A stretch of 64,000 bases of DNA from Bdellovibrionales bacterium (GCA_031370005.1 JANMPT010000003.1:16229-80228), one strand, 5' to 3'. Shown: positions 1-25,860, counted from the stretch's first letter. A program made the numbers and translations. The notes: generated from the letters alone by a model not told the origin.

Positions 1-2
1 GT

Positions 3-239
3 GCGGCTGTCACCATCACTGCTTCAACTAAGATCATCGATGTCACAGGCTCACAAGAGAAAATCTATCACGGTCGCATCCCGAAAAACTCTGTGGTGAT
101 CCCTGGCACTGTAATAAAAAAATTTCCTGCGGGGGAATATGGAACTCCCTGCGCTTTAATTATCGGACAAAGAAAAGCAAGTACTGATCTTAAGACGTCT
201 TTGACAGAGGCTTTGAGGGATTTCCAGATTTCAGTTTAG
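3..239 (+). CDS. dapD: tetrahydrodipicolinate N-succinyltransferase, C-terminal fragment (5' end lies outside the window)
   Basis: Frame 3 is open from the window edge to TAG at 237-239. The translation ...IPKNSVVIPGTVIKKFPAGEYGTPCALIIGQRKASTDLKTSLTEALRDFQISV resembles the DapD C-terminal tail. Family resemblance only. Confidence 0.6.
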   Translation, partial: AAVTITASTKIIDVTGSQEKIYHGRIPKNSVVIPGTVIKKFPAGEYGTPCALIIGQRKASTDLKTSLTEALRDFQISV

Positions 240-242
240 ATG

Positions 243-1487
243 TTAGTTTTTAATTCTTAATGCCTGCGCCGGCTGAATTTTACTAGAGGTTCTCGCCGGG
301 TACCAAGCACCACCAAGACAGACTAAAAAGCCCACCACCAAAACACCCCAAATAAGATTTGTATCCACAAGAGCCGGGATCTGGGAGTCATAATAAATAT
401 CTGGCAGGATATTTACTGGGTTTTTTTCAATATAAAAACTAATAGCCGTACCAAAGATCACTCCTGGTATCAGTCCAAAGGCCGCGAGCATCATTCCCAT
501 TTGCGTAAATATTTTCACTGTGCGCTTATCAGAAAGCCCTAGGGTTTTTAAAATCGCGATGTCACGTTTTTTCTGAGACATCAAAAGTGCCAATACTGAT
601 AAAATAGAAGTCGCAGCAATCAGTCCAGCAAGACCTAAAAATATGCCAATGATCAACTTCTCAAGTCTAAGTGCAAAAAATAAAACTGAATTACGATCCA
701 TCCAAGTCTCAGCCGTCACATCACTAAATTTTTCAACTTCTCGCTTAAGGTCATTCAGATTTTTTCCATCCGGAGTCCAAACCTCGATACCAACTTTGCG
801 GCTGGCCGCCGAGTCTAAACTATTCAAAGTTGCTCCTCGCTGGTAAAAAACAAACTGAGAATCTAAATCCGAAAGATTGGTGGTTATGATTTTGCTAACC
901 CTCACCTTTTCAAACTTTGGCGACTCCCCAGGGGGCAACAACAAACCCTCCGGTGGAACAACTGTGAGGTAATCCCCTTCAAAAACTCCCAAAGAACGAG
1001 CCAGATCCACGCCCACGATAACCTCCCCTTTTCCGGGAAGATCCTCAGAGCTCCAGAACTGAACATTATCGCGCTTTTTATGCTCTTCAGTTTGATGGAT
1101 TTGCTCCACCATAAATTTTAAACTCTCTTCACTAACTCCACGAGCGATGGCCCCGTGGAACTGTCCGTCCATGGTGCGCAAAATCACGTCTTGAGTTTCA
1201 TATACATAAGATTTATTTAGTGGATTTTCTTTGAGTCTTTGAAAAACTGGGTGAAGCTCCAGAATGGAGCCCTTGTTAACGCCATTCACACTCACATACA
1301 AGTGAGGCTCAAGCGAGAGAATACGTTTATGAATGCTAGCGTTCATGCCATTCATAACAAACAAAACGACCAAGAAAGCAGTCACACTCAAGGCAATAGC
1401 ACCCACAGAAAGCCAAGCTAGACGTTTAACGAGAGCACCGGCACGTTTGGAAAAAATGAAATGACTAAAAAATTCTCGGACGAGCAT
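243..1487 (-). CDS. LolC/LolE-type (FtsX/MacB-like) ABC transporter permease
   Basis: 414-aa ORF with an N-terminal TM helix, a large periplasmic loop and three C-terminal TM helices. Contains the FtsX-type region SQKKRDIAILKTLGLSDKRTVKIF. Confidence 0.8.
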   Translation of the reverse strand: MLVREFFSHFIFSKRAGALVKRLAWLSVGAIALSVTAFLVVLFVMNGMNASIHKRILSLEPHLYVSVNGVNKGSILELHPVFQRLKENPLNKSYVYETQDVILRTMDGQFHGAIARGVSEESLKFMVEQIHQTEEHKKRDNVQFWSSEDLPGKGEVIVGVDLARSLGVFEGDYLTVVPPEGLLLPPGESPKFEKVRVSKIITTNLSDLDSQFVFYQRGATLNSLDSAASRKVGIEVWTPDGKNLNDLKREVEKFSDVTAETWMDRNSVLFFALRLEKLIIGIFLGLAGLIAATSILSVLALLMSQKKRDIAILKTLGLSDKRTVKIFTQMGMMLAAFGLIPGVIFGTAISFYIEKNPVNILPDIYYDSQIPALVDTNLIWGVLVVGFLVCLGGAWYPARTSSKIQPAQALRIKN

Positions 1488-2504: not shown

Positions 2505-3244
2505 AGATGAACTACCTTCTTCGCCTGGTCCACCGTTTGTAAGTAAACTTGACCATCATCAACATGAATAATTTGATAGTTAAAAAGGCTCATATATTTT
2601 TCATCATAAGAGCTCATAAAAATATGCTTAAGATAACCGTCCTCTCGCATTTTATGAATATAGTCTACAAAGGTATAAAGAGTTTCTTGACCAAGCCCCA
2701 CAGAAGGATCATCCATCACTAAAACCTCAGGTTGCATCACAAGCGAACGCAACAGACATACTAATTTACGAACTCGTCCAGGAATATGCGCCGGCCTTTC
2801 TTGAGAGAATTTCTCAATATCAAATGCTTTAATAACACCCTCAACACGAGCTTTGGCGTCTTTCATCGAAATTAATTTGTGATAAGCCAATGGCAAAATC
2901 AGGTTATCATAAACTGTTCGATTGCTAATCAGACCGCCATAGTCAAAAGTATAACCGATGGCTAGGCGGTAAGGTAAAAACTCCTCAAAGGACATATCTA
3001 AAACGTTTTTTTCATTGATGTAGTAAAAACCGGATTGTGGCACTAACAGACCTGCAAGGACCTGTAAAAGACTTGATTTGCCTTGGCCTTCAATTCCCTT
3101 CACCCAAACAACCTCGTTCATTGGAAACTCAAAATCGACATTATAAATCAAAGGGGACTGCCCCTCATGAGCAAACGTCAAAGTTTCAAATTTCATGGTT
3201 TCAATTTTTTCGACTGGATTATTTTTTTGGCCATGCTTCGACAT
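2501..3244 (-). CDS. ABC-type ATPase-like protein (MlaF position) with degenerate catalytic motifs
   Basis: 247-aa ORF with an intact Walker A (GIEGQGKS). The Q-loop, signature, Walker B glutamate and H-loop positions look substituted (TFDYGG, HIPGRVRK, VLVMDDPS, FMSSYD). Sits between MlaE-like and MlaD-like ORFs with overlapping stops and starts. Confidence 0.7.
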   Translation of the reverse strand: MSKHGQKNNPVEKIETMKFETLTFAHEGQSPLIYNVDFEFPMNEVVWVKGIEGQGKSSLLQVLAGLLVPQSGFYYINEKNVLDMSFEEFLPYRLAIGYTFDYGGLISNRTVYDNLILPLAYHKLISMKDAKARVEGVIKAFDIEKFSQERPAHIPGRVRKLVCLLRSLVMQPEVLVMDDPSVGLGQETLYTFVDYIHKMREDGYLKHIFMSSYDEKYMSLFNYQIIHVDDGQVYLQTVDQAKKVVHL

Positions 3245-15365: not shown

Positions 15366-15451
15366 GCGCGGGTGGTGAAATGGTAGACACGCAGGTCTCA
15401 GAAGCCTGTGGCCGAAAGGCTGTGGGGGTTCAAGTCCCCCCTCGCGCACCA
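15366..15451 (+). tRNA. tRNA-Leu (anticodon CAG), class II with long variable arm
   Basis: Hand-folded: acceptor GCGCGGG/CTCGCGC (one G-U pair), D-arm GTG-AAATGGTAGA-CAC, anticodon stem CAGGT/GCCTG with loop CTCAGAA. Variable arm is TGGCCGAAAGGCTGT, T-arm is GGGGG-TTCAAGT-CCCCC, discriminator is A and the CCA is encoded. Confidence 0.9.
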
Positions 15452-17127
15452 ATACCTACAGTACTCGAGCCGGCACGGGTTTGAGGAAATGGGATCACAG
15501 AACCTTCTTTTTTCAAATTTATAGAAATTCCATCGGTGCCGGTTGCTTTGAAGGGTGACGAAGTTTCTTCATCTTGTGGAGTTTCTGCGCCCTTTGCGGG
15601 CGCATACATTCCAATTTTGATTTTGGTTGGCTGAATCTCGATAAATTTAATCAGGTTTGCGAAAATCGGTCTTTGATTTTCAGGCTCTGAAATCTCAAGT
15701 CTATTAATAGTCTGCTTAATCCTATCTTTAAGACCATCTTCGTTAATTTGCTCAGACATAATCTGCATCGATTGAGATCTGAGTTTTTCTTTCGCAAATT
15801 TCAAATCGGCGAGCTTCACATTCAATTGTTTGATCTGCTCGTAGAATTGATCGGCGGGAAGATCTGCCGGCAACTCTGAAACTCTTTGCACAAGATTTGT
15901 GATCTTCTTGGCCGTTGTTTGAATTTCCGTGTCCATCACCTTTTGACGTGATTGCATCTCAGGCCAGTCACTTATGGACTTTTCTTTGTAAATGGCAATC
16001 CACTTTTCTATAAGGCCAGGTTCATTGAGAAGTTGTTTTAAGGACTTTAAAACAATCTCCTCTAACCGGTAAGCTCTCACGTTCTTGACCTGGCATTTAG
16101 GTTTTAGCTCCTGGGCCAGCGGATTCTTGATCTGCGAATGCCCATAGTAAAAATGCTTTTCTTTCCGGCCAATGCCGGATTTCCCACCCATAGCTTTGCC
16201 ACACTCACTGCATTGAATGAGTTCCGTCAGTGGAAAGGCATGATTTTTCCAGTCCTCAGGTTTATATTTATTTTTGTTCTTATGAAGGCGCTCTTGTACT
16301 TTGTTAAAAAAGGCTTCCTCGATGATTGGTTTCCAAACGGCAGAGACCAGCTCTCGATTTCCGTCAACATGAGCCACTTCGCGCTTTCCTAGGTAAATGG
16401 GGTTTGTCAAAAGACTTTGCAGAGTGTCCACGGTAAAAACATTACCGCCCTTATCAAGGCCGTGCTTGTTGGTGTACTTTTTGTTAAAGATTCCTTCTTT
16501 AATCAATCTGATTTGGGTCTTTCGGACTGATCCTTCCTCTATAAAAGTCTCAAATATTTTTATAACATCTGCCGATTCAAGATCGTTAATGAGCAGTTCA
16601 CCTTTGTTCTTGGGGTTTCGGTCATATCCTAGGGGGATGCTTCCACCGTTCCAAAGGCCACGTTTTGCCCGGCTAAGCCAGTTGGCAGAAATTCTCTCAG
16701 CGGTTTGTTTGCGCTCGTACTGGGCATAATTTATGAGGTTAAAAACCATCATCTCGCCCGATGCAGTTGTGGTATCAAAAGATTCTCGAAGGGTGATGAA
16801 GCTGGCCTGATGCTTTTTTAACAGATCCCTGATGTCACAAAAATCACGAATATTACGGGATAAACGGGACAGCTCAGTTGCCAAAATCAAATTCACACGG
16901 CCGCCCTGGACGTCGGCTAGCATTCTTCTGAACTCAGGCCGATTCATATCTTTGGCAGATCTACCTTCGTCACAATAGAATTCTACAATGTGACCCCAGT
17001 TGGCCTTGAGCTTGTTTTGATATTCCACATACTCAACAATTCGATTTTTCTGCGAGACCAGGGAGCCATCTACAATTCTGGCCTGCTCTTCCGTCGATAC
17101 CCGAATGTACACTCCGCAACGCTTCAT
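15430..17127 (-). CDS. large serine recombinase (resolvase/invertase catalytic domain, recombinase domain, zinc ribbon, coiled coil)
   Basis: 565-aa ORF with an N-terminal catalytic motif (GVYIRVSTEEQ) and LSRLSRN. Has a recombinase-domain region, a Cys cluster (CSECGKAMGG...C) and a long helical C-terminal part. The last ~7 codons and the stop lie inside the tRNA-Leu gene. Confidence 0.9.
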   Translation of the reverse strand: MKRCGVYIRVSTEEQARIVDGSLVSQKNRIVEYVEYQNKLKANWGHIVEFYCDEGRSAKDMNRPEFRRMLADVQGGRVNLILATELSRLSRNIRDFCDIRDLLKKHQASFITLRESFDTTTASGEMMVFNLINYAQYERKQTAERISANWLSRAKRGLWNGGSIPLGYDRNPKNKGELLINDLESADVIKIFETFIEEGSVRKTQIRLIKEGIFNKKYTNKHGLDKGGNVFTVDTLQSLLTNPIYLGKREVAHVDGNRELVSAVWKPIIEEAFFNKVQERLHKNKNKYKPEDWKNHAFPLTELIQCSECGKAMGGKSGIGRKEKHFYYGHSQIKNPLAQELKPKCQVKNVRAYRLEEIVLKSLKQLLNEPGLIEKWIAIYKEKSISDWPEMQSRQKVMDTEIQTTAKKITNLVQRVSELPADLPADQFYEQIKQLNVKLADLKFAKEKLRSQSMQIMSEQINEDGLKDRIKQTINRLEISEPENQRPIFANLIKFIEIQPTKIKIGMYAPAKGAETPQDEETSSPFKATGTDGISINLKKEGSVIPFPQTRAGSSTVGIGARGGT

Positions 17128-17318
17128 GCGACCTCGCTTTCGATAAAGTCCTTTTGAATGGCCTCAGTTTTATCATGGTCATTGCCCATTTCAAGTAGGC
17201 ATTTTATGACGCGAGCTACGCGCTCGTTATAATCTTCCTCAGTTATTTTAATCTTCACGACCGCCACATTTTCTTCGTAAACGTAATCATTTTTAGAACC
17301 CATTATTTTAATCCCCAC
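17124..17318 (-). CDS. small hypothetical protein translationally coupled to the recombinase
   Basis: 64-aa ORF with a GTG start; an alternative ATG lies at 17301-17303. Its TGA stop overlaps the recombinase ATG (ATGA overlap at 17124-17127). No family recognised. Confidence 0.4.
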   Translation of the reverse strand: MGIKIMGSKNDYVYEENVAVVKIKITEEDYNERVARVIKCLLEMGNDHDKTEAIQKDFIESEVA

Positions 17319-17398
17319 ATACCAATCACCTCCCGGCTCAAGTTTTATTTTTCAAATTTTCATGCCTCCGTTTTTCCTTTCTTCGTTTTCAGTTTTAG

Positions 17399-18388
17399 TT
17401 ATCCACATTTCTCATAACCCCTCTCCGTCACATCTTTATCAGTCCCAGATCCCTCTTCTCCGGCCACAGCTTCTGACCCCAGTCCACCTTTCGTTGGGGG
17501 AGTGGGGTCAGAAGCGATCAGTGGCCGGTTCCCAGGTTCTGTTTTTTCTGAATTTATTTGTGATGGAGAGGGGTTATCTGCAATTTCCGCGTTCAAATTT
17601 TGGTCGGCTTTGTTGCTCACCCCTTGAGTAGCTTTGTTTCCCTCTGATTTCCACACATCAAAGGCCAATTCGCCAAATGAGACAAAGCGGCTATCTTTTA
17701 AAAAGAAAACTTTTGAGTCTCTTTTATTCTTAAAAAAGTCATTAAGGTGGCTCACAAAGATATGCTGCCGATCATTTCTAAAACTTTGCTTTTGCCAACC
17801 GGCTTTAAGTGCATGGACAAGGCCCTTGTCTTTGATGAAGTACCAAATAATATCAATACGGTTTTTGTCAGCGTACTCAGTGAATGTTTCCCGGTATCTC
17901 AAGTGGCTTTTCTGAGTAAGCTCTAGCTCCACCGCAATCACCAAAGCTTTGCCATTCATCATCTCCGCCATGAGCCCATCTGGGATGATTTTGTTACGGG
18001 CTTTTTTATAATCATGTCTGAAAGCTCCTGCCTTCATGACACATTCGGAAGTCCACTCAAGGCCAAGATTCATTGCCTCAAAGGCAAGTCTCAAGTCATT
18101 CAAAAGCACATCATGTTCAATGGTGTTGCGGTTTGAAAATTTAAATGAGTCTTCTAAACCGAGAAGTCTTCGGCCGCCAACATCAAGCCGCCAGGTGTTT
18201 GTGCCATTCTTTAATGTCACTCCGCGAGAGATAAAACGCCCTTCCTCTAAAAGGCGCAGCCGCTTCATGACAGTGGTGTGGGCAACACCCTTAAAAAAGA
18301 GAGCCCCAATTTGACGAGTCGAGAGGACTCCAAATTTATAAATACTGGCAATAATTTCTTTGTCCCTTGCCTGTAACTTCATCCCCAA
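17399..18388 (-). CDS. replication-relaxation (Replic_Relax-like) family protein
   Basis: 329-aa ORF with an N-terminal winged-helix-like segment (RDKEIIASIYKFGVLSTRQIGALFF...TVMKRLRLLEEGRFI). It is followed by IEHD...IPDG...AVELELTQKS, a nuclease-fold-like motif pattern of this family, and has a low-complexity acidic/Pro-rich tail. Confidence 0.65.
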   Translation of the reverse strand: MGMKLQARDKEIIASIYKFGVLSTRQIGALFFKGVAHTTVMKRLRLLEEGRFISRGVTLKNGTNTWRLDVGGRRLLGLEDSFKFSNRNTIEHDVLLNDLRLAFEAMNLGLEWTSECVMKAGAFRHDYKKARNKIIPDGLMAEMMNGKALVIAVELELTQKSHLRYRETFTEYADKNRIDIIWYFIKDKGLVHALKAGWQKQSFRNDRQHIFVSHLNDFFKNKRDSKVFFLKDSRFVSFGELAFDVWKSEGNKATQGVSNKADQNLNAEIADNPSPSQINSEKTEPGNRPLIASDPTPPTKGGLGSEAVAGEEGSGTDKDVTERGYEKCG

Positions 18389-18987
18389 TGTCCTTTGATG
18401 ATTTCATTGATGGCTTTTTTGCTCACGACTTTAAGACTTTTCTCGTGAGCTTGACGGGCCAGCTCCTCGGAAATCTTGCGCTCATATTCAACCTCCTGGG
18501 CCTTCAGAATTTCCAACTGCTTCGCCTCATACTTTTTACGGCGTTCATTGGCCGCAGTGATTTTGGCTTGTTCCATCTGCTGACGCTGTTCTTCCGGCAA
18601 AGCCATATAGGCATTTTCTTTTTCAATTCGCCCCAACTCAATCCGCTGAAGAATAGCCTGGCATTCCAGTTCATCCAGCTCGGCTTGGGTGAGACGCTTT
18701 TCTTCGGCCAATTGCTTTTGCTTGTGGGTCCAATTATTCAAAAAGAATTTCAAGGCAGGGGTAGAAATCAGAAATAGAAAAAATAGGCCAGCGCAGATCA
18801 GGCAAAGGTAAACTGCATTGACCTCCATGCGCCATAGAGGCCCAACAAGACCATCCCAAAGGAAATGGCCCCTGTGATCAAGACCACTGATCCAAAAGCC
18901 CCAACGAAGCACGTTAAAGAGAAATACACACATGCCCAGTTTTATTAAGAGCACTTTCTCAAAATTTTTTATAGGCACCTCCCTCAT
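18379..18987 (-). CDS. hypothetical membrane protein with C-terminal coiled coil
   Basis: 202-aa ORF with two to three hydrophobic helices, then a charged heptad-like region (KQKQLAEEKRLTQAELDELECQAILQRIELGRIEKEN...). Its stop overlaps the next ORF's start by 10 nt. Confidence 0.45.
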   Translation of the reverse strand: MREVPIKNFEKVLLIKLGMCVFLFNVLRWGFWISGLDHRGHFLWDGLVGPLWRMEVNAVYLCLICAGLFFLFLISTPALKFFLNNWTHKQKQLAEEKRLTQAELDELECQAILQRIELGRIEKENAYMALPEEQRQQMEQAKITAANERRKKYEAKQLEILKAQEVEYERKISEELARQAHEKSLKVVSKKAINEIIKGHWG

Positions 18988-18989
18988 TT

Positions 18990-19056
18990 AAAAATCACTC
19001 GCTTCTCATAGGTAATATCAAAAACGATGCCGTATTCGTGTCGCAGAGTGATTTTT
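18990..19056. promoter_or_regulatory. 11-bp inverted repeat (AAAAATCACTC ... GAGTGATTTTT) immediately upstream of the module's first ORF
   Basis: The arms at 18990-19000 and 19046-19056 are exact reverse complements. The proximal arm lies 3 nt from the ATG at 18985-18987. Confidence 0.4.
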
Positions 19057-19112
19057 CTATAAGCCTTTGTTTTCAAGACACAAAAATGATTTCCATACTT
19101 TTTGTGGCCCGC

Positions 19113-19140
19113 TTTAAGTGACGAAACTTCGTCACTTAAA
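19113..19140. repeat. perfect 28-bp palindrome containing TGACGAA-NN-TTCGTCA (copy 1 of 3)
   Basis: TTTAAGTGACGAA-ac-TTCGTCACTTAAA, with 13-bp arms that are exact reverse complements. Confidence 0.9.
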
Positions 19141-19217
19141 ATTTAGGCTCGCCCTCGGTTTTGAACCTCAATTGAATCAATTCACCAACTTAGCAACGAC
19201 GAGACCTCGACACGATT

Positions 19218-19233
19218 TGACGAACATTCGTCG
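19218..19233. repeat. TGACGAA-NN-TTCGTC(g) palindrome (copy 2 of 3)
   Basis: TGACGAA-ca-TTCGTCg has the same half-sites and spacing as copies 1 and 3, with one terminal mismatch. Confidence 0.85.
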
Positions 19234-19308
19234 CACACGACTTTTTAAAATTGCAAGGCCATGCCAGCATGACCGAAAAGTGATTTAAGTTTTGGGAAAC
19301 TCAAACGA

Positions 19309-19330
19309 ATATTGAGATCCATCTCAATAT
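19309..19330. repeat. perfect palindrome ATATTGAGAT-cc-ATCTCAATAT
   Basis: The 10-bp arms are exact reverse complements. Confidence 0.9.
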
Positions 19331-19340
19331 GATAGGGCTG

Positions 19341-19367
19341 AAAAGTTTCAAATAATTTGAAACTTTT
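19341..19367. repeat. perfect 27-bp palindrome AAAAGTTTCAAAT-a-ATTTGAAACTTTT
   Basis: The 13-bp arms are exact reverse complements. The TTTCAAAT core recurs in the next inverted repeat. Confidence 0.9.
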
Positions 19368-19402
19368 TTTTGGGTCTTGAATGAAATCATAGACTTGAGT
19401 CA

Positions 19403-19438
19403 TTTCAAATTTCTTGAAGACTTTCAGGAAATTTGAAA
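19403..19438. repeat. inverted repeat TTTCAAATTTC - 14 nt - GAAATTTGAAA
   Basis: The 11-bp arms at 19403-19413 and 19428-19438 are exact reverse complements. They share the TTTCAAAT core with the 19341-19367 palindrome. Confidence 0.85.
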
Positions 19439-19465
19439 CCTCAAGCTCTGGCTGGGTTTTTCGGG

Positions 19466-19481
19466 TGACGAAATTTCGTCA
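19466..19481. repeat. perfect palindrome TGACGAA-at-TTCGTCA (copy 3 of 3)
   Basis: TGACGAAATTTCGTCA is self-complementary over 16 bp. Confidence 0.9.
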
Positions 19482-19596
19482 TTTCAGAGGTCGACTTTAC
19501 CGGTAATCGCAGTGGGTATAAGTGCTTAAAATTGTTGAGGTAAATCGGCTACGTTTTTAGACTAAAATTTCGATGCCGATGAAATCAATTTATCCG

Positions 19597-19624
19597 TGGG
19601 GTTCGAATCCCTCCCTCTCCGCCA
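19597..19624 (+). pseudogene. orphan tRNA 3' fragment (T-arm, acceptor 3' strand, G discriminator and CCA; tRNA-Ser-like)
   Basis: TGGGG-TTCGAAT-CCCTC-CCTCTCC-G-CCA. The ...CTCTCCGCCA end resembles bacterial tRNA-Ser. No complementary GGAGAGG 5' strand, D-arm or anticodon arm lies within 100 nt upstream. Confidence 0.7.
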
Positions 19625-19718
19625 TTTCCGAAAGTCTGGTTGTGAAAGGCGACCTCAATAAGGACGGTTGGGAATAAACCCTCGGGGGAATAAAGAAGAG
19701 AGCAAGCCCAAACGGCCG

Positions 19719-20585
19719 TCACAATAGTGATGAAAGATTTTCGGTAAGAAATTTTTTAAATGAAATAGCATCTCGCTTCAAAATATCGGAAACCACAGAT
19801 GTTGGTTTAGAGAACTGGCCATTTGCGATGTTCTCACCCAGTTTCGTGAGATCGCTTGCCAACCAAGCGGGATATCCCATAGCAGTTAGCCCCTGCACGA
19901 GTTGTTGAGAAGGCATGTTTACATAATTTATTTCTCTTTTTAAAAGTGAAGTTAGCGCCTCTGCCGCATCGCTGAACGAAATCGCCTCACTTCCCGAGAT
20001 CACATAAGTTTTTCCCGCGTGACCGTTTTCCTGAAGGCAGGCGACGGCTACTGCGGCAATGTCGCGAGCATCAACCATTGCGAGTAAACCATCACTATAA
20101 TTTCCATACACTGCATTCTGTGATTTAATCGCCCCAGCCTGTGCAATGAAGTTCTGCATAAAAAAATAGGGTTGCAGGATTGAAAATGAAATTTCAGAGT
20201 TTTTTAGGTAATCGTCAGCTTTGGCATGCTGTTGTGCTTGTGATATTGGAGAATCCTTACTTGCTCCAGCCCCGGAAAGCATAACGATTCGCCTTACGCC
20301 AACCTTTTTAGCAACATCAATAGCATTTTTCTTCAATTCAGCTTCATTTTGAGTAGGGGGTGCCAACAAAAAAAGCCTTTCAATTCCGGTGAGTGCTTTT
20401 TCCAGGCTAGACAAATCCTCTAAATCCCCAGTTACCGCTTCGATATTGAGTTCCTCCGCCATCTTCGCGGATTTGGAACTGCGAGAAAGCATTTTTGTTT
20501 GAATATGCGATTTAGAAAGTTGTTTGAGAACCTCGATTCCAACTTTGCCCGTACCGCCAATAACGAGAATCATATTACGCTCCAT
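19719..20585 (-). CDS. NmrA-family / atypical SDR NAD(P)-binding oxidoreductase
   Basis: 288-aa ORF with an N-terminal Rossmann motif (ILVIGGTGKVG) and NmrA-like length and layout. Confidence 0.75.
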   Translation of the reverse strand: MERNMILVIGGTGKVGIEVLKQLSKSHIQTKMLSRSSKSAKMAEELNIEAVTGDLEDLSSLEKALTGIERLFLLAPPTQNEAELKKNAIDVAKKVGVRRIVMLSGAGASKDSPISQAQQHAKADDYLKNSEISFSILQPYFFMQNFIAQAGAIKSQNAVYGNYSDGLLAMVDARDIAAVAVACLQENGHAGKTYVISGSEAISFSDAAEALTSLLKREINYVNMPSQQLVQGLTAMGYPAWLASDLTKLGENIANGQFSKPTSVVSDILKRDAISFKKFLTENLSSLL

Positions 20586-20600
20586 CTTGCTAATGTGGGT

Positions 20601-21041
20601 TTAAGTCAGAAGCTTGTGCAACTTCTCAAATGAGCTTTCCCAGCCATGGGTGTGGCCGGAGCAATCCTTTTCATCAATGAATCCAGTTTGACTAAGCGTG
20701 ATTTCAGTCCCATCAGCTACTTTTCGAAATTCAACTGTCACCGTTGTGTGTGGCGCGGGACCTCTCCAAGTACCTGTGCAATCAAATACAAGGCGCTCAT
20801 TTGGAACAATTTCCATGTAGGTGCCAGACATGTTGCCGGTAGTCTGTTGGCCACGCATCTCTCCTTCCATAGAAATAACAAATTTTCCGCCCACTTTAAA
20901 ATCAACTTGGACCTCAGGAATTGATAATGTTCCCGGAGCAAACCAGCTTTTTAGTAAATTTGGGCTTTTCCAAGCATCAAAAACTTTCTCCGGGGACGCC
21001 TTTATCGTCTTTTTCATTTGTACTTTAATGTTTGGGTTCAT
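20601..21041 (-). CDS. SRPBCC (AHSA1/START-like) domain protein
   Basis: Start moved to the ATG 21039-21041, behind a GGAGGAG RBS. The sequence IKASPEKVFDAWKSPNLLKSWFAPG...GGKF...ERLVF...GTEITL is typical of Aha1-like SRPBCC proteins, which are commonly paired with ArsR regulators. Confidence 0.7.
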   Translation of the reverse strand: MNPNIKVQMKKTIKASPEKVFDAWKSPNLLKSWFAPGTLSIPEVQVDFKVGGKFVISMEGEMRGQQTTGNMSGTYMEIVPNERLVFDCTGTWRGPAPHTTVTVEFRKVADGTEITLSQTGFIDEKDCSGHTHGWESSFEKLHKLLT

Positions 21042-21369
21042 GTTTTTTCTCCTCCAAAAGTTCTTGAAGCGCGTCCAAACGATTGCCCCAAAATTGTTGA
21101 TAATATGAAATCCATTGATCTGCCGTCTTAAGAGTCTCGGCATTGAGACTGACAATCTGATAACTGCCCTCTTTTTTCCTGTCGATTAACTTTGCGTTCT
21201 CAAGCACCTTGAGATGCTTCGATACAGCCGCTAAAGACATTGTAAATGGCTTGGCAATTTCGCTCACGGTTTTTTGCTTCTTCGATATGCCTCGCATTAT
21301 GGAGCGACGAGTAGAATCTGCCAAAGCATGAAAAATTAGGTCTAATTGTCCTATTTCAGATTTAACCAT
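21025..21369 (-). CDS. ArsR/SmtB-family transcriptional regulator
   Basis: 114-aa ORF. FHALADSTRRSIMRGISKKQKTVSEIAKPFTMSLAAVSKHLKVLENAKLI is the ArsR winged-helix signature. Confidence 0.85.
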   Translation of the reverse strand: MVKSEIGQLDLIFHALADSTRRSIMRGISKKQKTVSEIAKPFTMSLAAVSKHLKVLENAKLIDRKKEGSYQIVSLNAETLKTADQWISYYQQFWGNRLDALQELLEEKKHEPKH

Positions 21370-21415
21370 ATGGTTTAATGATAACAGATTCTACTATAGA
21401 GTCAACCATTTGGTT
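21361..21415. promoter_or_regulatory. two AACCA/TGGTT-type palindromes at the arsR start (candidate ArsR operators)
   Basis: TTTAACCAT-ATGGTTTAA (21361-21378, one mismatch) overlaps the start codon. AACCA-tt-TGGTT lies at 21404-21415. Confidence 0.35.
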
Positions 21416-21566
21416 AAATCATTGAAAAGGTTCGGAATTAATCGAGCTCTCGGAAATAATCTCAGAATTCAGCATTGGGCATTACCGGACAGAAGTGCCA
21501 CCCAAGTTACTCTTTTAAAGAAAATCGAGAGCGAATTAAGATTTGCGCTTTTTTCCCCAATCGTAC

Positions 21567-22048
21567 ATGGCATCCAATATCGGTCGAAGGCTCCTGCCTG
21601 AATCCGTCTTCTATTTTTATTTGTTTCTCAAGCCTTTGCCCAGAATATCCCGACCGAGTCTCCGGTGCTTGAGGATGTGATCATCAACTCGATGAGCGTC
21701 ACTTACCCTTCTCCTTATAAGATTTCGATGGCAACTTATCTTGGACAAGCTCCGAAATATCGGCAGACGGCTACATATAATTGTGGACTGAGTGCACGCA
21801 ACGGCTATGACCTCTGGTGCTGGGGATTTTCTGGGGGCGGCGCCCAATTGCGTATGTTTCCAGATTTGGGAATCGATTCGAAAAATTTGCGCCTTCCCCC
21901 CGAGTCAGGGAACACCTTTGCCCGTATGAATACGACCAAGACCAATTGCGAGAAAATGCAACAGGATCTTGCAAATGCGAGCTCAGAGAAACAATTTGTT
22001 CTCCGCGTTTATGGCAACAGAAGCTTTACTTTAACTCCACGGCCTTAA
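21567..22048 (+). pseudogene. possible frameshifted gene for a small exported protein
   Basis: ATG at 21567 opens MASNIGRRLLPESVFYFYLF in one frame. The neighbouring frame reads IRLLFLFVSQAFA-QNIPTESPV and continues into the 127-aa ORF 21665-22048. The two frames meet at the T-rich run 21611-21623. Confidence 0.3.
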
Positions 22049-22063
22049 ACGAAGTTGCAACCC

Positions 22064-22306
22064 CTATGCTTTCTTTCTAAAAACGGTCTGCTCAAGCTTT
22101 TCTAGACGGTCCTCTACAGAGTCATGGGACTCAATAGATTTTCTGAGAAACCAATTTAAGAAGGTTTGGTATCCCATTCCTTGTTTCTCGCCCTCAGATT
22201 CCAACCATTCAATGACCTCAGCATCAAGCCGAAAAGTCTTGATGACTTTGATGTCTTTTGCTTTTTTACCCCTTTTTGCCTTTGAGAAATCATATTCATT
22301 TTTCAT
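22064..22306 (-). CDS. brnA: BrnA-family antitoxin
   Basis: 80-aa ORF. KTFRLDAEVIEWLESEGEKQGMGYQTFLNWFLR matches the BrnA pattern. Lies directly downstream of the BrnT-like ORF. Confidence 0.8.
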   Translation of the reverse strand: MKNEYDFSKAKRGKKAKDIKVIKTFRLDAEVIEWLESEGEKQGMGYQTFLNWFLRKSIESHDSVEDRLEKLEQTVFRKKA

Positions 22307-22309
22307 AAC

Positions 22310-22588
22310 TCACCTCGAAAGATATTGGTTTGACTCGGTTTTGGTGGCTGGTCTTGCAGAGATAATTCGGACCCGCTCACCCTCAATTTTTTCACAATAA
22401 ACAACCACTAACAAATTGGCCTTTCGTGATATCCCCAGCCTAAGCCATCTCTCTTCATCATGAGAGTGTTCTGGGTCTGGAGTTTCTAGGGCAGAATTAT
22501 CAAGCCAAATGGTTATTGCCTCAGAAAAGCGAATCCCATGCTTTTTATAGTTGCTGTCTGCCTTGGTGTCGTCCCACTCAAAGTCCAT
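22310..22588 (-). CDS. brnT: BrnT-family (DUF497) toxin
   Basis: 92-aa ORF. FEWDDTKADSNYKKHGIRFSEA...DEERW...VRIISARPATKTE is the BrnT signature. Confidence 0.85.
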   Translation of the reverse strand: MDFEWDDTKADSNYKKHGIRFSEAITIWLDNSALETPDPEHSHDEERWLRLGISRKANLLVVVYCEKIEGERVRIISARPATKTESNQYLSR

Positions 22589-22637
22589 AATTCACTATAT
22601 TATATTGTTATTACTTTGTAAATACATTTTTAAAATC

Positions 22638-22877
22638 TCATATAGTTGGTTTTAAAGCGTTTTGCCGCACAAAGGCCTCTGAAGCCCCAATGGCCCTCGC
22701 TGTTTTCCCGGAATTCCCATATTTCTTGATAAGCGTCAGCAGGTCGGCCGGCAAAAGGGCCTTCGGCTCCGCAACAACCTCAAATTCAGCTTGAAACACC
22801 GGCTCAGATCGAAATAAAGTGCTCGCAGAGATGGCGAGCGGTTCGTCTACTTCGGTGACTTTGGCACCATTTAACAT
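22638..22877 (-). CDS. small hypothetical protein with C-terminal HTH-like segment
   Basis: 79-aa ORF. The C-terminus LIKKYGNSGKTARAIGASEAFVRQN looks like a Fis/resolvase-type HTH. A degenerate second copy of its 3' end lies at 24443-24489. Confidence 0.35.
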   Translation of the reverse strand: MLNGAKVTEVDEPLAISASTLFRSEPVFQAEFEVVAEPKALLPADLLTLIKKYGNSGKTARAIGASEAFVRQNALKPTI

Positions 22878-22892
22878 TTTCAGTCACTTGTA

Positions 22893-22934
22893 CCAATACG
22901 GCGAATGGCTTTTTCAATTCAAATTCAATACTTA
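22893..22934. repeat. 42-bp perfect direct repeat, copy 1
   Basis: CCAATACGGCGAATGGCTTTTTCAATTCAAATTCAATACTTA is identical to 24490-24531. Confidence 0.95.
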
Positions 22935-23027
22935 CACCCTTCTAGCCCCTGATATACGTTGGACATATTTACGACGGCTTTCGAAGTGCCGAGGGGCAAA
23001 TGGCTAAGAAAGGCAGTGTAATTGATT

Positions 23028-23225
23028 TTAACGCCATTCATAGTGTCCCATGTGAGGTGTTTTTTTCAAATGTAATTTAAGGCCGTTGATATCTTGCTCA
23101 AGTTCAAGAAACTTTCGGTCCGCGAACTCTTGAGACTGCTCAAGGTTGTGAGTGTAAAGCCAGAATGCAGCCTCTTCTAGCTCAGCTTTGAACTTGTCGG
23201 ATTCGAGGATTTCAAATGCTTGCAT
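23028..23225 (-). CDS. ParE/RelE-like toxin, apparently only the N-terminal helical hairpin (possibly truncated)
   Basis: 65-aa ORF that starts directly after the stop of the Phd/YefM-like ORF. The helical N-terminus (KFKAELEEAAFWLYTHN...FLELEQDINGL...PHMG) resembles ParE-type toxins, but the beta-sheet core is missing. Confidence 0.45.
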   Translation of the reverse strand: MQAFEILESDKFKAELEEAAFWLYTHNLEQSQEFADRKFLELEQDINGLKLHLKKTPHMGHYEWR

Positions 23226-23528
23226 TTAGCCGACGGCTTTCTTCGTTCTCTTTGCATTGAGGGCTCGTGTTTTGGCGCGATTCAAAGTGTCCTTTGTCGA
23301 TTGGTCCGTGACACGACTCACTCGTCCTTGAGCAATATCAACAAGGCCAACAGTCAGCCCATGCAGCCTAGCAAGATCGAGCTGCATTTTCTCAAAAACG
23401 TCGGCATTAAGAAGAACGAAGGCTTCCCCAGATTTTCGAGTGATTTTAACAGGCTCAACCCTTGCGGCTTCCATCCACTCTTTCATATTTGATCTGAAGT
23501 CATTGGCATTTGTTCTGTCCATAGACAC
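23226..23528 (-). CDS. Phd/YefM-family antitoxin
   Basis: 100-aa ORF. The N-terminus NANDFRSNMKEWMEAARVEPVKITRKSGEAFVLLNADVFEKM is typical of Phd/YefM. AGGAGG RBS upstream. Confidence 0.8.
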   Translation of the reverse strand: MSMDRTNANDFRSNMKEWMEAARVEPVKITRKSGEAFVLLNADVFEKMQLDLARLHGLTVGLVDIAQGRVSRVTDQSTKDTLNRAKTRALNAKRTKKAVG

Positions 23529-23543
23529 CTCCTATTCTTAAAT

Positions 23544-23561
23544 AGTACACTTAACCGTACT
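23544..23561. promoter_or_regulatory. AGTAC-N8-GTACT inverted repeat upstream of the Phd/YefM-like gene (candidate operator)
   Basis: AGTACacttaaccGTACT lies 16-33 nt upstream of the ATG. GTAC-containing palindromes are the known operator type for YefM-class antitoxins. Confidence 0.4.
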
Positions 23562-23751
23562 GTTAGCCAAGATGCTATTTTATCAGAAAAGTACCGTGTC
23601 TTGACTGGTAAAGCGAATACAACGTGATTGCATCCACTGTATAGGATACGTTTTATCCATTGCCAGAGGTTCTTCTAGCCTACGGCCGTGGGCACCACTG
23701 ATTTTCGGGTCCACCCCGAAGACATAGGGAACACTTTTCGGTATCTGCGGT

Positions 23752-24063
23752 TTAGCTCGCCTTAGAAAAACTAAAACCAAACTCAAAGTGACCACCACAA
23801 GCGGCCGCTATGCGAGCCAACAGCGGAATAGACGGCACTCGCTTATCAGAACCACCCTCAAGTCTTGCAATCACACTTTGAGTCGTTCCAATCAGTTTAG
23901 CTAATTGAGCCTGAGTTAAGTCAGCTTTCATGCGCGCAGCTCTAACCGCATGCGCGATTTCAGTTTTAGATTTTTCTTCTTCAAACTGAATACGAACTTC
24001 TTTGTCTTTTAATATTTTTTGAAAAAATGGCTTTGCTGATTTGTATGATTTTTTATTTTTCAT
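23752..24063 (-). CDS. higA: XRE-family HTH antitoxin (HigA-like)
   Basis: 103-aa ORF with an HTH (LTQAQLAKLIGTTQSVIARLEGG). Its start overlaps the stop of the upstream toxin ORF by 4 nt. Confidence 0.8.
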   Translation of the reverse strand: MKNKKSYKSAKPFFQKILKDKEVRIQFEEEKSKTEIAHAVRAARMKADLTQAQLAKLIGTTQSVIARLEGGSDKRVPSIPLLARIAAACGGHFEFGFSFSKAS

Positions 24064-24395
24064 AATCCTAAAACCTCTTTCATTCTTTTTTCAGCGATTT
24101 CAAGATCGCCCGTTGGTGTTTTCTGAGTTTTCTTTTTAAAAGCATGAAGCCAAACCATCGTATTTGTTTCAACAACAACATAGGCTATGCGGTAGCTGCC
24201 GCTTGGTGTATTAAACTTTACTTCCCAGAGTTTACCGCGAAGCTGCCTAAACTGAACACGCGGACAACCTAATCCATATTTTTCAATACCTTCAAAGACA
24301 TCAGCAAAACGTGCTTGATCTGCTTTTGGCAGATCACTGATAAAATCTTCGATTGGGCTTCGTCCTGACGACGTTTCGTAAAGAGCTACTTTCAC
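24060..24395 (-). CDS. higB: HigB / phage Gp49-like RelE-superfamily toxin
   Basis: 111-aa ORF. GKLWEVKF...YRIAYVV...VWLHAFKKKTQKTPTGDLEIAEKRMKE is the Gp49/HigB pattern. The toxin-first gene order is typical of HigBA. Confidence 0.8.
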   Translation of the reverse strand: MKVALYETSSGRSPIEDFISDLPKADQARFADVFEGIEKYGLGCPRVQFRQLRGKLWEVKFNTPSGSYRIAYVVVETNTMVWLHAFKKKTQKTPTGDLEIAEKRMKEVLGL

Positions 24396-24397
24396 AC

Positions 24398-24427
24398 CCT
24401 TAATATAGCCAAAAGGCTATATTAAGG
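24398..24427. promoter_or_regulatory. perfect 13-bp-arm palindrome directly upstream of higB (candidate operator)
   Basis: CCTTAATATAGCC-aaaa-GGCTATATTAAGG begins 3 nt upstream of the higB ATG. Confidence 0.55.
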
Positions 24428-24489
24428 CAAGATTTTTTTAATTTAGCTATTCTGCCCTACAAAGGCCTGACTAGCGCCGACCGTGTCAG

Positions 24490-24531
24490 CCAATACGGCG
24501 AATGGCTTTTTCAATTCAAATTCAATACTTA
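24490..24531. repeat. 42-bp perfect direct repeat, copy 2
   Basis: Identical to 22893-22934. It is preceded (24453-24489) by a shortened relative of the 3' end of ORF 22638-22877. Confidence 0.95.
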
Positions 24532-24884
24532 AGCCATTTAATATTGGGTTAGGAGAGTACATTATCACCCTCGACAATTTCTCGGAGCACATTTTGGGCA
24601 GCAATGACGTCGGACTCTGGGGTCCAATAGTCTTCGTAGCAGAGACAGTTCGCGCAGTGCGAATTTGCAAAACAGCTGCTGATACAATCAAGGCATTTTA
24701 AGTGGCTATTTTGCTATGAATAGTTGTGAATTTGTATAGACAATAAATATCAAGTAAAATCATATGGTTATATTATAACTGTATAATATAACATTCAAAA
24801 TATCGTTAATTGGCCATTATATTAGTCATTATTTAGTTAGCTTATTTTGATGTGAATAATATAGTTGCCAAAACGCCAGTAATT

Positions 24885-24900
24885 GGATACTATATTATCC
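24885..24900. promoter_or_regulatory. GGATA-N6-TATCC inverted repeat just upstream of the hipB-like ATG
   Basis: GGATActatatTATCC. The region 24760-24900 also carries several TATAATATAAC-like repeats. Confidence 0.35.
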
Positions 24901-24903
24901 ATT

Positions 24904-25242
24904 ATGGGAAAGAAGACAGCTACACAGACACCAAAGCTAATAGCCCTTCTTAAAGCACTGGGTGAAAACATCCACCTAGCACGTCGTCGTCGTCGCCTCT
25001 CGTCCACAATGCTTGCTGAAAGGGCCGGAATGACTCGAATGACCTTGCGGGCAGTTGAAAGAGGCGAGCCAACAGCAAGCCTTGGTGCGTATGCAAATGT
25101 ACTTTTTAGCCTCGGACTTGAAAAAGATCTGTCGACTGTTGCGAAAGACGATGAGCTGGGTCGAAGACTTCAGGATGCAAGCTTAGTCAGAAGCAAAAAA
25201 ACTAAGTCAAAAAAAGATCCCTCAAAAACAGAGCTAGAGTAA
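24904..25242 (+). CDS. hipB: XRE-family HTH protein (HipB-like antitoxin)
   Basis: Start taken at ATG 24904 (the track's TTG is at 24883). HTH segment LSSTMLAERAGMTRMTLRAVERGEP. Lies directly upstream of a HipA N-terminal fragment. Confidence 0.7.
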   Translation: MGKKTATQTPKLIALLKALGENIHLARRRRRLSSTMLAERAGMTRMTLRAVERGEPTASLGAYANVLFSLGLEKDLSTVAKDDELGRRLQDASLVRSKKTKSKKDPSKTELE

Positions 25243-25246
25243 AATT

Positions 25247-25520
25247 ATGGGAAAGAGCAAGACTGGGCAAAAAATAGTTTATATTTATGCCAATTGGGAG
25301 ACGCTAGAAACTCCTCAGCTTACGGGATCTCTATTTGTAACCCTCTCACGCGGTAAAGAAATTTTTTCATTTGAGTATGATCCAAAATGGCTGAAGTCAA
25401 ATTACGCCCACGATCTTGATCCAAATTTAAAATTTTTTGGCGGTCCTCAGTATCCTAAATCCGATCACGCAAACTTTGGTCTTTTTCTTGATTCGTCTCC
25501 AGATCGTTGGGGGTTGATAA
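25247..25520 (+). pseudogene. hipA: hipA-like toxin gene retaining only the N-terminal domain
   Basis: The first ~88 codons (IVYIYANWE...GSLFVTLSRGKEIFSFEYDPKWL...FLDSSPDRWG) match the HipA N-terminal domain. Resemblance stops at ~25512 and the rest of the 148-aa ORF is antisense read-through of tRNA-Ala. No kinase core is present. Confidence 0.7.
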
Positions 25521-25521
25521 A

Positions 25522-25596
25522 TGGTGGACCCAACCAGAGTCGAACTGGTGACTTATCCATGCCATGGACATATAATCCCAACTTCACCATGGGCCC
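25522..25596 (-). tRNA. tRNA-Ala (anticodon GGC)
   Basis: Hand-folded from the reverse complement: GGGCCCA-TG-GTGA-AGTTGGGA-TTAT-A-TGTCC-ATGGCAT-GGATA-AGTC-ACCAG-TTCGACT-CTGGT-TGGGTCC-A-CCA. It has a G3-U70 pair, T8, A14, G18G19, T33 and a TTCGA T-loop. The D-stem consists only of A-U and G-U pairs, which lowers confidence. Confidence 0.65.
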
Positions 25597-25860
25597 GTTT
25601 TTCATTCTACCTATAGTCACTCCGCAGACGACTAACAATGGTTTTAATATAGACTCTTGCAGCGGCAACATACGTTATAACTATCGCCCCTAGCGCTCCG
25701 AAAAAAGTCAAAACTACCTGCACCAAAAATGTACTCAATATTCAGCAAAACCTTGGCGTAGATGTCGCGCGCGCGAGTAAATAGGACTTCCCTTTCAAAA
25801 AAATGAGTCAACTGTCTGGCTTAGCTTGCTCCTTCAGAGGTGAAGAGGTAGATTTACCTG

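Follow-up and report, generated by a model that had tools for sequence, protein, structure and literature searches.

A four-gene serine-recombinase module at the 3' end of tRNA-Leu(CAG) in a Bdellovibrionales bacterium is probably a small integrative mobilizable element

A 64,000-nucleotide stretch of DNA from Bdellovibrionales bacterium (GCA_031370005.1 JANMPT010000003.1:16229-80228), referred to here as the window and numbered from its first letter, contains a row of four genes which runs, on the minus strand, into the 3' end of a tRNA-Leu(CAG) gene. The question raised by this locus is what kind of genetic element so small a gene set represents. A prediction made previously from the sequence of the window (the original prediction) had proposed a small integrative element or integrated mini-plasmid with a replication-relaxation protein and a large serine recombinase. 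The analysis presented here suggests, with a probability of about 0.6, that an integrative mobilizable element (IME), about 4.0-4.2 kb long, has inserted here at the 3' end of tRNA-Leu(CAG). The module is mobile, being found beside five different tRNA genes, and further, indirect evidence of mobility was provided by copies which are 86-94% identical and occupy different sites, and by a separate 4157-bp contig. The locus also has the composition by which IMEs are defined, namely an integration module of its own and a relaxase/origin of transfer (oriT) without type IV secretion system (T4SS) genes, where the relaxase is assigned by homology only.

The four open reading frames (ORFs) encode proteins of 202, 329, 64 and 565 amino acids (Table 1). 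ORF calling agreed with the original prediction that they are co-directional and tightly packed or overlapping, though a gap of 80 nt (17319-17398) precedes the 64-aa ORF; the 202-aa and 329-aa ORFs overlap by 10 nt, and the stop codon of the 64-aa ORF overlaps the recombinase start (ATGA). In public gene calls the start of the 329-aa ORF is set two codons later, giving a protein of 327 aa. Comparison with the L002 copy (86% identical) gave ratios of nonsynonymous to synonymous substitution (dN/dS) of 0.11 for the 202-aa ORF, 0.15 for the 329-aa ORF and 0.04 for the recombinase, and of 0.32, from 7 differences only, for the 64-aa ORF. The recurrence of the four-gene order elsewhere, which the original prediction had proposed as a check, was also confirmed: a protein of about 150-200 aa, a Replic_Relax protein, a small ORF and a large serine recombinase follow one another in L001, L002/L003, P0004, P0005, L005, L009 and L014, and the module is conserved down to about 36-40% protein identity. 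The dN/dS values, together with the same gene order in relatives at this level of identity, indicate that the four ORFs are real genes, and all four are under purifying selection and are not chance ORFs. The loci which carry an organism name belong to Pseudobdellovibrionaceae, Bacteriovoracaceae and Bacteriovorax stolpii.

The 565-aa protein has the three domains of the large serine recombinase family (Pfam Resolvase, 2.9e-30; Recombinase, 8.4e-12; Zn_ribbon_recom, 7.1e-8; all above cut-offs) and matched the integrase family PHROG 95 (3.6e-95), while a CcrB-like match (6.9e-53) fell below its cut-off. Its N-terminal serine-recombinase motif YIRVSTEEQ and the cysteine cluster C306/C309 (with C345) are invariant among four orthologues. 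The stop codon (15430-15432) falls 22 nt inside the 3' end of tRNA-Leu(CAG), and the strand complementary to the tRNA 3' end supplies the last 7 codons together with the stop. Wherever both the end of the recombinase gene and its flank could be read, the gene was found to end inside the 3' end of a tRNA on the opposite strand; the tRNA was Leu-CAG in the window, Arg-ACG in L002/L003, Leu-TAA in L005, Ser-GGA in L009 and Ser-GCT in L014. Two of these recombinases, in the window and in L002, share 94% identity although their target tRNAs differ.

Homology among these independent insertions starts at or within the terminal CCA of the tRNA and extends into a conserved element-side arm of the attachment site (P'), which reads ATACCTACAGTACTCGAGCCGGCACG in the window, CTCCCTACAGTACTCGAACCGGCACG in L002, CTCCCAACAGTACTCGAACCGGCACG in L005, ACTTTGAAAGTACACGAACC in L009 and ATTTTGATAGTAGTCGAACC in L014. 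The same arm codes for the conserved C-terminus of the recombinase, AGSSTVG, and the residues past it are supplied by the target tRNA, whichever that is. In the window, the chromosomal (B) arm of the left attachment site (attL) is formed by the 3' end of tRNA-Leu(CAG), with the crossover somewhere in or beside GCACCA as a candidate interval. On the strength of the recurrent tRNA insertions and of homology which starts at CCA, the left end of the element can be placed, give or take a few bases, at the CCA of the tRNA. The same evidence rules out the alternative, named with the original prediction, that these are conserved chromosomal genes, and its proposal of a small integrative element is upheld. 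A long direct repeat of the tRNA end was absent from the far side of the module in L005 and L014, and only chance-level partial matches were seen in L002 and L009. A scan of metagenomes with the P' motif returned one unrelated high-GC contig only, and scans of viral contigs, by protein and by motif, gave no match.

At the other end, homology between the window and L002 stops at 19439. In the source sample the element assembled as its own contig, the Logan contig L001 (4157 bp, 100% identical), which contains exactly the four genes and spans 15421 to 19576; on either side, Logan contigs of the same run (SRR20217173) end at 15410 (L008) and start at 19600 (L007). The base composition of the element could not be distinguished from that of its surroundings. 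An orphan tRNA-Ser-like 3' fragment, GGGTTCGAATCCCTCCCTCTCCGCCA, lies at 19598-19625 on the plus strand, its 5' half being absent throughout the window. This fragment is near-identical to the 3' end of the tRNA-Ser(GCT) which is targeted in L014, and it is followed (flank to 19640) by TTTCCGAAAGTCTGG, which resembles the element-side P' arms of relatives. An earlier insertion may have left the fragment behind as a relic attL. Two other explanations of the fragment were rejected. The idea that it is the element's own attP arm found no support as a feature of the family, since the far ends of L002, L005, L009 and L014 lack a fragment of this kind. Nor was a tRNA split by the element with its 3' half displaced to 19600, as the acceptor strand CCTCTCC of the fragment cannot pair with GCGCGGG, the 5' strand of the tRNA-Leu acceptor stem, which at present pairs at 7/7 positions.

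The breaks between the Logan contigs leave patches of 10 nt and 23 nt (15410-15421 and 19576-19600) at the element ends, and position 15420 is G in the element contig but C in the window. These short gaps imply local haplotype differences in sample SRR20217173; they are not a simple product of excision, since joining the 5' half of tRNA-Leu to the fragment at 19600 would give a hybrid unable to form an acceptor stem. Two candidate markers of the right end were tried and discarded: an inverted copy of the P' arm gave chance-level matches only, and the motif TTTCGA..CCGATRAAATCAA, common to the window (19568-19588) and L005, scored no better than random pairs.

The original prediction recognised the 329-aa protein as Replic_Relax-like, and this was confirmed by a Pfam match (PF13814; E 1.4e-8, 35.5 bits against a cut-off of 25.3, profile positions 2-174 of 191); its statement that the element has no relaxase did not hold. 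PF13814 proteins constitute the MobC/MOBC relaxase superfamily of CONJscan (PMC5357655). MOBC relaxases belong to the PD-(D/E)XK restriction-endonuclease superfamily, and their prototype, TraX of pAD1, has an N-terminal winged helix (PMC12857230); Replic_Relax has likewise been assigned the PD-(D/E)XK fold (PMC3424549). In an alignment of 14 sequences, H92, P136-D137-G138, E154, E156 and K160 were invariant and D93 nearly so, which gives the nuclease motif H-D / P-D-G / E-x-E-x3-K. AlphaFold (AF2) models had a predicted local distance difference test score (pLDDT) of 74 for the whole protein and 87 for the core domain. Residues 7-76 were modelled as a MarR-type winged helix (Foldseek probability about 1.0, with many MarR structures), and the invariant residues fell on helix 87-105 and strands 138-144 and 147-156 of a modelled alpha/beta core, the best Foldseek neighbours of which were the PD-(D/E)XK proteins YaeQ, BamHI, BsaWI and EcoO109I. 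The fold evidence for a PD-(D/E)XK core is supportive, not decisive. The protein has the MOBC arrangement of an N-terminal winged helix ahead of the nuclease domain, with conserved acidic/lysine residues of catalytic type on the PD-(D/E)XK core; it is a winged-helix and PD-(D/E)XK member of the Replic_Relax/MOBC superfamily and, by homology only, the candidate relaxase of the element. Its family is small, with only 15 relatives among 5.8 billion protein clusters, and a scan of a genome collection found two loci only. Half of the family members (7/14) end, after the disordered tail, in a conserved ..(E/K)KCG, and 2 more in a related K-x-x; in the window copy this ending is at residues 320-329. 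It could be a secretion or docking signal.

A homologue with conjugative neighbours was found in L010 (Bacteriovoracaceae metagenome-assembled genome CAYHPW010000005, 1-7200). This protein is 29% identical to the 329-aa protein (E 2e-13) and has the motifs HD / IPDG / ExE..K. Its gene is part of a row consisting of a TrbI/VirB10-like gene, the relaxase homologue, a VirD4-type coupling protein (domains TraG-D_C, TrwB_AAD_bind and T4SS-DNA_transf), an HTH_17 excisionase, a tyrosine integrase and tRNA-Pro. To judge from its gene order, the row is arranged like an integrative conjugative element, in which the homologue stands where a relaxase would. The linkage to a coupling protein or T4SS which is expected of MOBC is thus present for the L010 homologue, but not in the element or the window described here. 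The L010 integrase is of 495 aa and its ORF overlaps tRNA-Pro(GGG) by 58 nt.

In two further loci, B. stolpii CP030035 (L004, beside a tRNA) and the ENA contig L012, a membrane protein and a Replic_Relax protein are followed by an HTH_17 protein and a tyrosine integrase. These layouts indicate that the membrane protein and Replic_Relax, as the mobilization pair, form one module, and that the small protein and integrase form a second, exchangeable one. Defence-like genes (SNF2/DEAD helicase, NOV_C, DUF2130, HATPase_c_3 and N6_N4 methyltransferase) lie upstream of the Replic_Relax/HTH_17/tyrosine-integrase module in L004 (1000-8300; CP030035, 1.40 Mb), and a larger island at tRNA-Leu(TAA) may carry them as cargo.

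Within its 3' end, where the disordered tail is encoded, the 329-aa gene contains a conserved hairpin. The main stem of this hairpin is formed by 17469-17488 and 17496-17515, with the core CTGACCCCAC...GTGGGGTCAG and a conserved loop start, CCCCCAAC, and what appears in the tail as a protein motif (DPTPPT...GGLGS) is simply the two hairpin arms. The same hairpin was found in L002, L005, L009, L011 and L012, and in B. stolpii (L004) it lies 20 nt past the stop codon, outside any ORF. In an alignment of seven sequences, 89.5% of cells were paired and both sides had changed in 9/18 pairs; none of 500 shuffles reached the observed values, and slid partner columns paired at 30-42%. The core CTGACC...GGTCAG and the first loop bases were invariant or nearly so. 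As single-stranded DNA, the window hairpin was predicted to fold at -24.4 kcal/mol (z = -6.8).

A covariance model was built on the seven sequences, with L010 and L014 held out. Exactly one site in the window was found with this model, and both held-out loci were matched: the L014 site (36 bits) is at the 3' end of the Replic_Relax gene there, and the L010 site is at 3091-3166 (37 bits, E about 1e-8, 22-bp arms). In L010 the hairpin falls between the mating-pair formation (MPF) genes and the relaxase-like gene, whose probable start is about 70 nt downstream of it, and this is where the oriT of MOBC systems has been placed (preprint 10.64898/2026.01.13.699239). This position, together with the covariation, the stability and the non-coding location in L004, is the ground on which the hairpin is read as an oriT; it is probably an origin of transfer common in kind to the small elements and to a conjugative element of the same bacterial group. 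No T-run follows the hairpin, and therefore it is not an intrinsic terminator.

The 64-aa protein (pI 4.7) had no family match in Pfam, PHROGs or NCBIfam, and a homologue search with it returned itself only. A small ORF (45-71 aa) nevertheless fills the same slot in every serine-recombinase relative examined; those of four relatives align with the 64-aa protein, with the common core EEDYNxRxxRLIxxLLEI. In the tyrosine-integrase relatives this slot is always filled by an HTH_17 excisionase. Because the exchange of small ORF for HTH_17 tracks the integrase type, the 64-aa protein is likely to be a recombination directionality factor (RDF), and the original prediction was reasonable in naming it as a candidate; the argument is positional only, and RDFs of serine integrases share no common fold (PMC12286644). 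The ATGA overlap is consistent with translational coupling to the recombinase. At the DNA level the 64-aa ORF (17124-17318, against L002 4545-4739) is 96.4% identical between the two copies, compared with 85-87% in the neighbouring genes, and its synonymous divergence (dS) is 0.08, compared with 0.5-0.85 in those genes. This suggests an extra nucleic-acid constraint or recent gene conversion.

The 202-aa protein has two predicted membrane segments (hydrophobic residues 9-31 and 53-83) and a tail of 113 residues, 39% of them charged, which is probably a coiled coil. No family in Pfam, PHROGs or NCBIfam was matched above threshold, the sole Pfam match being to DUF3350 (21 bits against a cut-off of 25). 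A word-based search returned the protein itself and its L002 copy only, while an exhaustive HMMER search of 1.84 billion representative proteins found only 12 relatives, of which 10 have 169-233 aa, one has 121 aa and one 961 aa. The family has the motifs NVLVWGFW..GIDN..FLW..LVGPYW..E, ALPEEER and NSP..RKKAL. The idea that this is a truncated coupling protein was rejected, as it has no similarity to the coupling protein of L010; that it anchors the relaxosome in the membrane, or serves it as an adaptor there, is a guess.

Table 1. Features of the locus. Positions are those of the window, except where residues are given.
Feature	Position	Strand	Basis or description
tRNA-Leu(CAG), integration target	15366-15451	+	ARAGORN; Rfam tRNA 55.7 bits
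Large serine recombinase (565 aa), integrase	15430-17127	-	Pfam, PHROG, orthologue alignment
attL junction: tRNA end GCACCA, then element-side P' arm ATACCTACAGTACTCGAGCCGGCACG	15446-15477		homology of independent insertions
64-aa ORF	17124-17318	-	acidic; candidate recombination directionality factor
329-aa ORF	17399-18388	-	Replic_Relax / MOBC-like putative relaxase
329-aa protein, winged helix	residues about 1-76		
329-aa protein, PD-(D/E)XK-type domain	residues about 87-250		
329-aa protein, disordered tail	residues 249-329		
Conserved hairpin, candidate oriT	17460-17528	-	inverted repeat, covariation, DNA fold, covariance-model matches
202-aa ORF	18379-18987	-	two hydrophobic segments and charged tail; accessory protein
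Upstream control region	18988-19490		palindromes, motif enrichment, L002 comparison
Interval holding the right end (attR)	19439-19625		L002 homology end, Logan contig breaks, tRNA fragment

Upstream of the four genes, an inverted-repeat search agreed with the palindrome-rich region described in the original prediction. Perfect or near-perfect palindromes are present at 19113-19140, 19341-19367, 19403-19438 and 19463-19484, and the region is 83% identical to L002 as far as 19439. These four strong palindromes are built from two 8-mers, TTTCAAAT and GTGACGAA, which are 10- to 50-fold enriched in the element; 7/20 window copies of the former lie in the element (15511-19472), as do 5/7 of the latter. 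The palindromes are probably promoter/operator sites, as predicted from these features. A search for sigma-70 promoters upstream gave one weak match, no better than chance, no convincing intrinsic terminator was found, and an Rfam scan returned tRNA only. Near-identical 20-mers, GGGTGACGAA(G/A)TTTC(T/G)TCAT, occur at 15553, about 100 nt inside the left end, and at 19463.

Beyond the element, 19700-25700 is an accessory region rich in toxin-antitoxin genes. It contains NmrA-like, AHSA1/SRPBCC, ArsR, BrnT/BrnA and Phd/YefM antitoxin genes, a Gp49(HigB-like)/helix-turn-helix (HTH) pair, and an HTH gene followed by an unassigned 148-aa ORF which overlaps tRNA-Ala(GGC) (25522-25596). A 30-nt repeat is present twice, at 22893-22922 and at 24490-24519. 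Two small ORFs in the region, 22638-22877 and 24443-24691, are related to each other, and the former has a 76%-identical counterpart beside the L002 element.

If the locus is an IME, its transfer might proceed as follows. The recombinase, together with the 64-aa directionality factor, would excise the element as a circle. The MOBC-like protein would bind through its winged helix and cut at or near the hairpin acting as oriT, and the DNA would then be taken over by the coupling protein and T4SS which a conjugative element like L010, resident in the same cell, could supply as a helper. The two-transmembrane/coiled-coil protein would possibly serve as a membrane adaptor in place of a coupling protein of the element's own. 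In the recipient, the recombinase alone would integrate the circle into a tRNA 3' end, where it appears to recognise features common to several tRNAs (the T-loop plus GCACCA/CGCCA). It is tentatively proposed, as a possibility rather than a probability, that these features define a minimal family restricted to Bdellovibrionota, which would combine a recombinase that reads generic tRNA 3'-end features and has its C-terminus re-written at each target, a dual-coded oriT hairpin shared with (copied from) a helper and used with the element's own PD-(D/E)XK relaxase, and a two-transmembrane coiled-coil protein that replaces the coupling protein.

Several observations weigh against this interpretation. 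The steps of the proposed cycle, namely excision, cutting at the hairpin, recourse to a helper T4SS and the choice of tRNA targets, are all inferred. Known MOBC mobilizable plasmids and IMEs carry a VirD4-type coupling protein of their own (PMC5704250), which is lacking here: as the original prediction had stated, the element has neither a coupling protein nor a phage structural gene, and homologues of the type IV coupling protein (T4CP) and TrbI, looked for across the 64-kb window, were not found. No helper T4SS was seen in the 64-kb window either, and the L010 contig holds only the 5' part of its conjugative element, the rest of the T4SS being cut off. The PF13814 match of the 329-aa protein is modest (35 bits), and its match to the NCBIfam family 'MobC family replication-relaxation protein' (NF041423; E 5.3e-8, residues 88-198) scored 32.4 bits against a cut-off of 200, by which it is a distant member of the superfamily and not a member of the curated MobC subfamily. 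The Foldseek matches of its core to restriction enzymes all had E > 1e-3, and a tblastn search of PLSDB plasmids with the 329-aa protein gave no match. The hairpin may serve not as oriT but as an origin of replication, a single-strand origin or a regulator at the RNA level, and the right boundary of the element, and with it the size of about 4.0-4.2 kb, is only bracketed, between 19439 and 19625.

One rival explanation, though a rather unlikely one, is an integrated mini-plasmid or replicative island, in which the Replic_Relax protein is an initiator that nicks the hairpin as a double-strand origin, and the circle replicates and is spread by another route. The best PHROG matches of the 329-aa protein are to 'replication initiation protein' (3.3e-7) and 'replication initiation by nicking' (2.1e-4), and these labels of its nearest phage families also count against a relaxase. 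A hairpin beside an initiator gene is also typical of rolling-circle origins. The family name and the original literature cover plasmid replication besides relaxation (PMC3424549, Table 1), and some relaxases of integrative elements double as replication initiators (PMC5357655); the two roles of the 329-aa protein are not mutually exclusive. Against a mini-plasmid stand the position of the L010 homologue, in the relaxase slot beside the T4CP and VirB10-like genes, and the lack of a helicase, primase or partition gene and of any plasmid homologue.

It is quite improbable that the 329-aa protein is a winged-helix regulator or nuclease without a role in transfer (an excision regulator, or a maintenance or exclusion nuclease) on a non-mobilizable island spread by transformation or transduction. 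Steczkiewicz et al. do call Replic_Relax 'a predicted transcriptional regulator' in view of its HTH fusion (PMC3424549), the N-terminus of the protein matches MarR-type repressors, and the upstream palindromes could be its operators; its nuclease-type residues, however, are invariant over 14 sequences, its family is linked to a T4CP and T4SS in L010, and the accompanying hairpin is structured, with widely spaced arms, and not a typical operator. A defence system was rejected, as none of the 202-, 329- and 64-aa proteins matched a PADLOC defence family, which speaks also against this reading of the 329-aa protein, and the recombinase gave only a marginal match to LmuB (E 0.0029, 14 bits). That the locus is the immobile, decayed remnant of a larger conjugative element or prophage which has lost its transfer genes is given very little credence. 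Its very small size, the orphan tRNA-Ser fragment and the neighbouring 19.7-25.7 kb, full of toxin-antitoxin genes and repeats as in eroded islands, would agree with erosion. Against it stand the retention of these four genes, and no others, at five different tRNA sites and at 36-40% protein identity, the dN/dS of 0.04-0.15 for the three larger genes, and a recombinase in which YIRVSTEEQ and all three domains are intact.

The integrative mobilizable element, which remains the preferred explanation, was compared with known systems. The original prediction had called the architecture undescribed; accessory protein, relaxase, small protein and integrase is, however, the standard layout of a compact IME, and the pairing of a MobC relaxase with a serine integrase is already known from the streptococcal IME_Class_8, which has the compact order VirD4, PF13814/MobC relaxase and serine integrase (Coluzzi et al. 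2017, PMC5357655). The element resembles that class in the Pfam family of the relaxase, the class of the integrase, a compact order ending in the integrase and the absence of its own T4SS. It differs in that the slot of the VirD4 coupling protein is occupied by the 202-aa two-transmembrane/coiled-coil protein, and in its host phylum, Bdellovibrionota rather than Bacillota. Serine-recombinase IMEs have also been described as inserting within genes, and no directionality factor has been proposed for them (PMC5704250), whereas this element lies at tRNA 3' ends and has a candidate. The 329-aa protein shares the winged helix and PD-(D/E)XK catalytic domain of TraX (pAD1) and MobC (CloDF13) (PMC12857230), but the similarity is distant (32-35 bits), with no plasmid match at BLAST level, and the 329-aa protein has a long disordered tail which encodes the hairpin. 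L010 has in common with the element the homologous relaxase-like protein, the same hairpin family and integration beside a tRNA, and differs in having a T4CP, a VirB10/TrbI-like gene, an HTH_17 excisionase and a tyrosine integrase, and in the position of the hairpin upstream of the relaxase gene rather than inside it.

Use of a tRNA as attB by serine recombinases is rare, precedents being phage phiRSM1 (tRNA-Ser 3' end) and the Mycobacterium actinomycete integrative and conjugative elements (AICEs; tRNA-Leu) (Ghinet et al. 2011, PMC3218068). The former is a filamentous phage with a small resolvase-like enzyme, the latter are actinomycete elements with FtsK-type transfer, and each uses one tRNA gene; the family described here, in contrast, occupies at least five tRNA species, and its integrase ORF reads into the target. 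In being minimal, at about 4.7 kb with one integrase and one mobilization gene, Tn5520 and the NBU-type Bacteroides transposons are alike to the element, and Tn5520 is cited as the smallest mobilizable transposon (PMC5704250); they differ in having a tyrosine integrase and an HUH-type Mob protein, and the proteins are unrelated.

The kind of element to which the locus is assigned, an IME with a MobC/PF13814 relaxase and a serine integrase, is therefore already known (PMC5357655, PMC5704250). It differs from those described in having a family-specific membrane protein and no coupling protein, in integrating at tRNA 3' ends, in its candidate directionality factor and dual-coded candidate oriT, and in its host phylum; none of the papers searched was found to describe such an element in predatory Bdellovibrionota. 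In a recent survey, fewer than 5 genes were present in only 0.5% of IMEs, and serine recombinases in <1% of att-delimited islands (preprint 10.64898/2026.01.13.699239). If the proposed mechanism holds, the element, with four genes in about 4 kb, would be among the smallest self-contained IMEs. The hairpin shows neatly how an apparent protein 'motif' can in reality be a nucleic-acid signal. The locus would offer a compact system for the recognition and processing of oriT by MOBC relaxases of the restriction-endonuclease type, a class for which a covalent intermediate has never been seen (PMC12857230), for the roles of small partner proteins in the docking of the relaxosome, and for the rare use of tRNA genes by serine integrases (PMC3218068). 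The tRNA-targeting serine integrase, together with its small putative directionality factor, may in addition be a possible tool for genome engineering.

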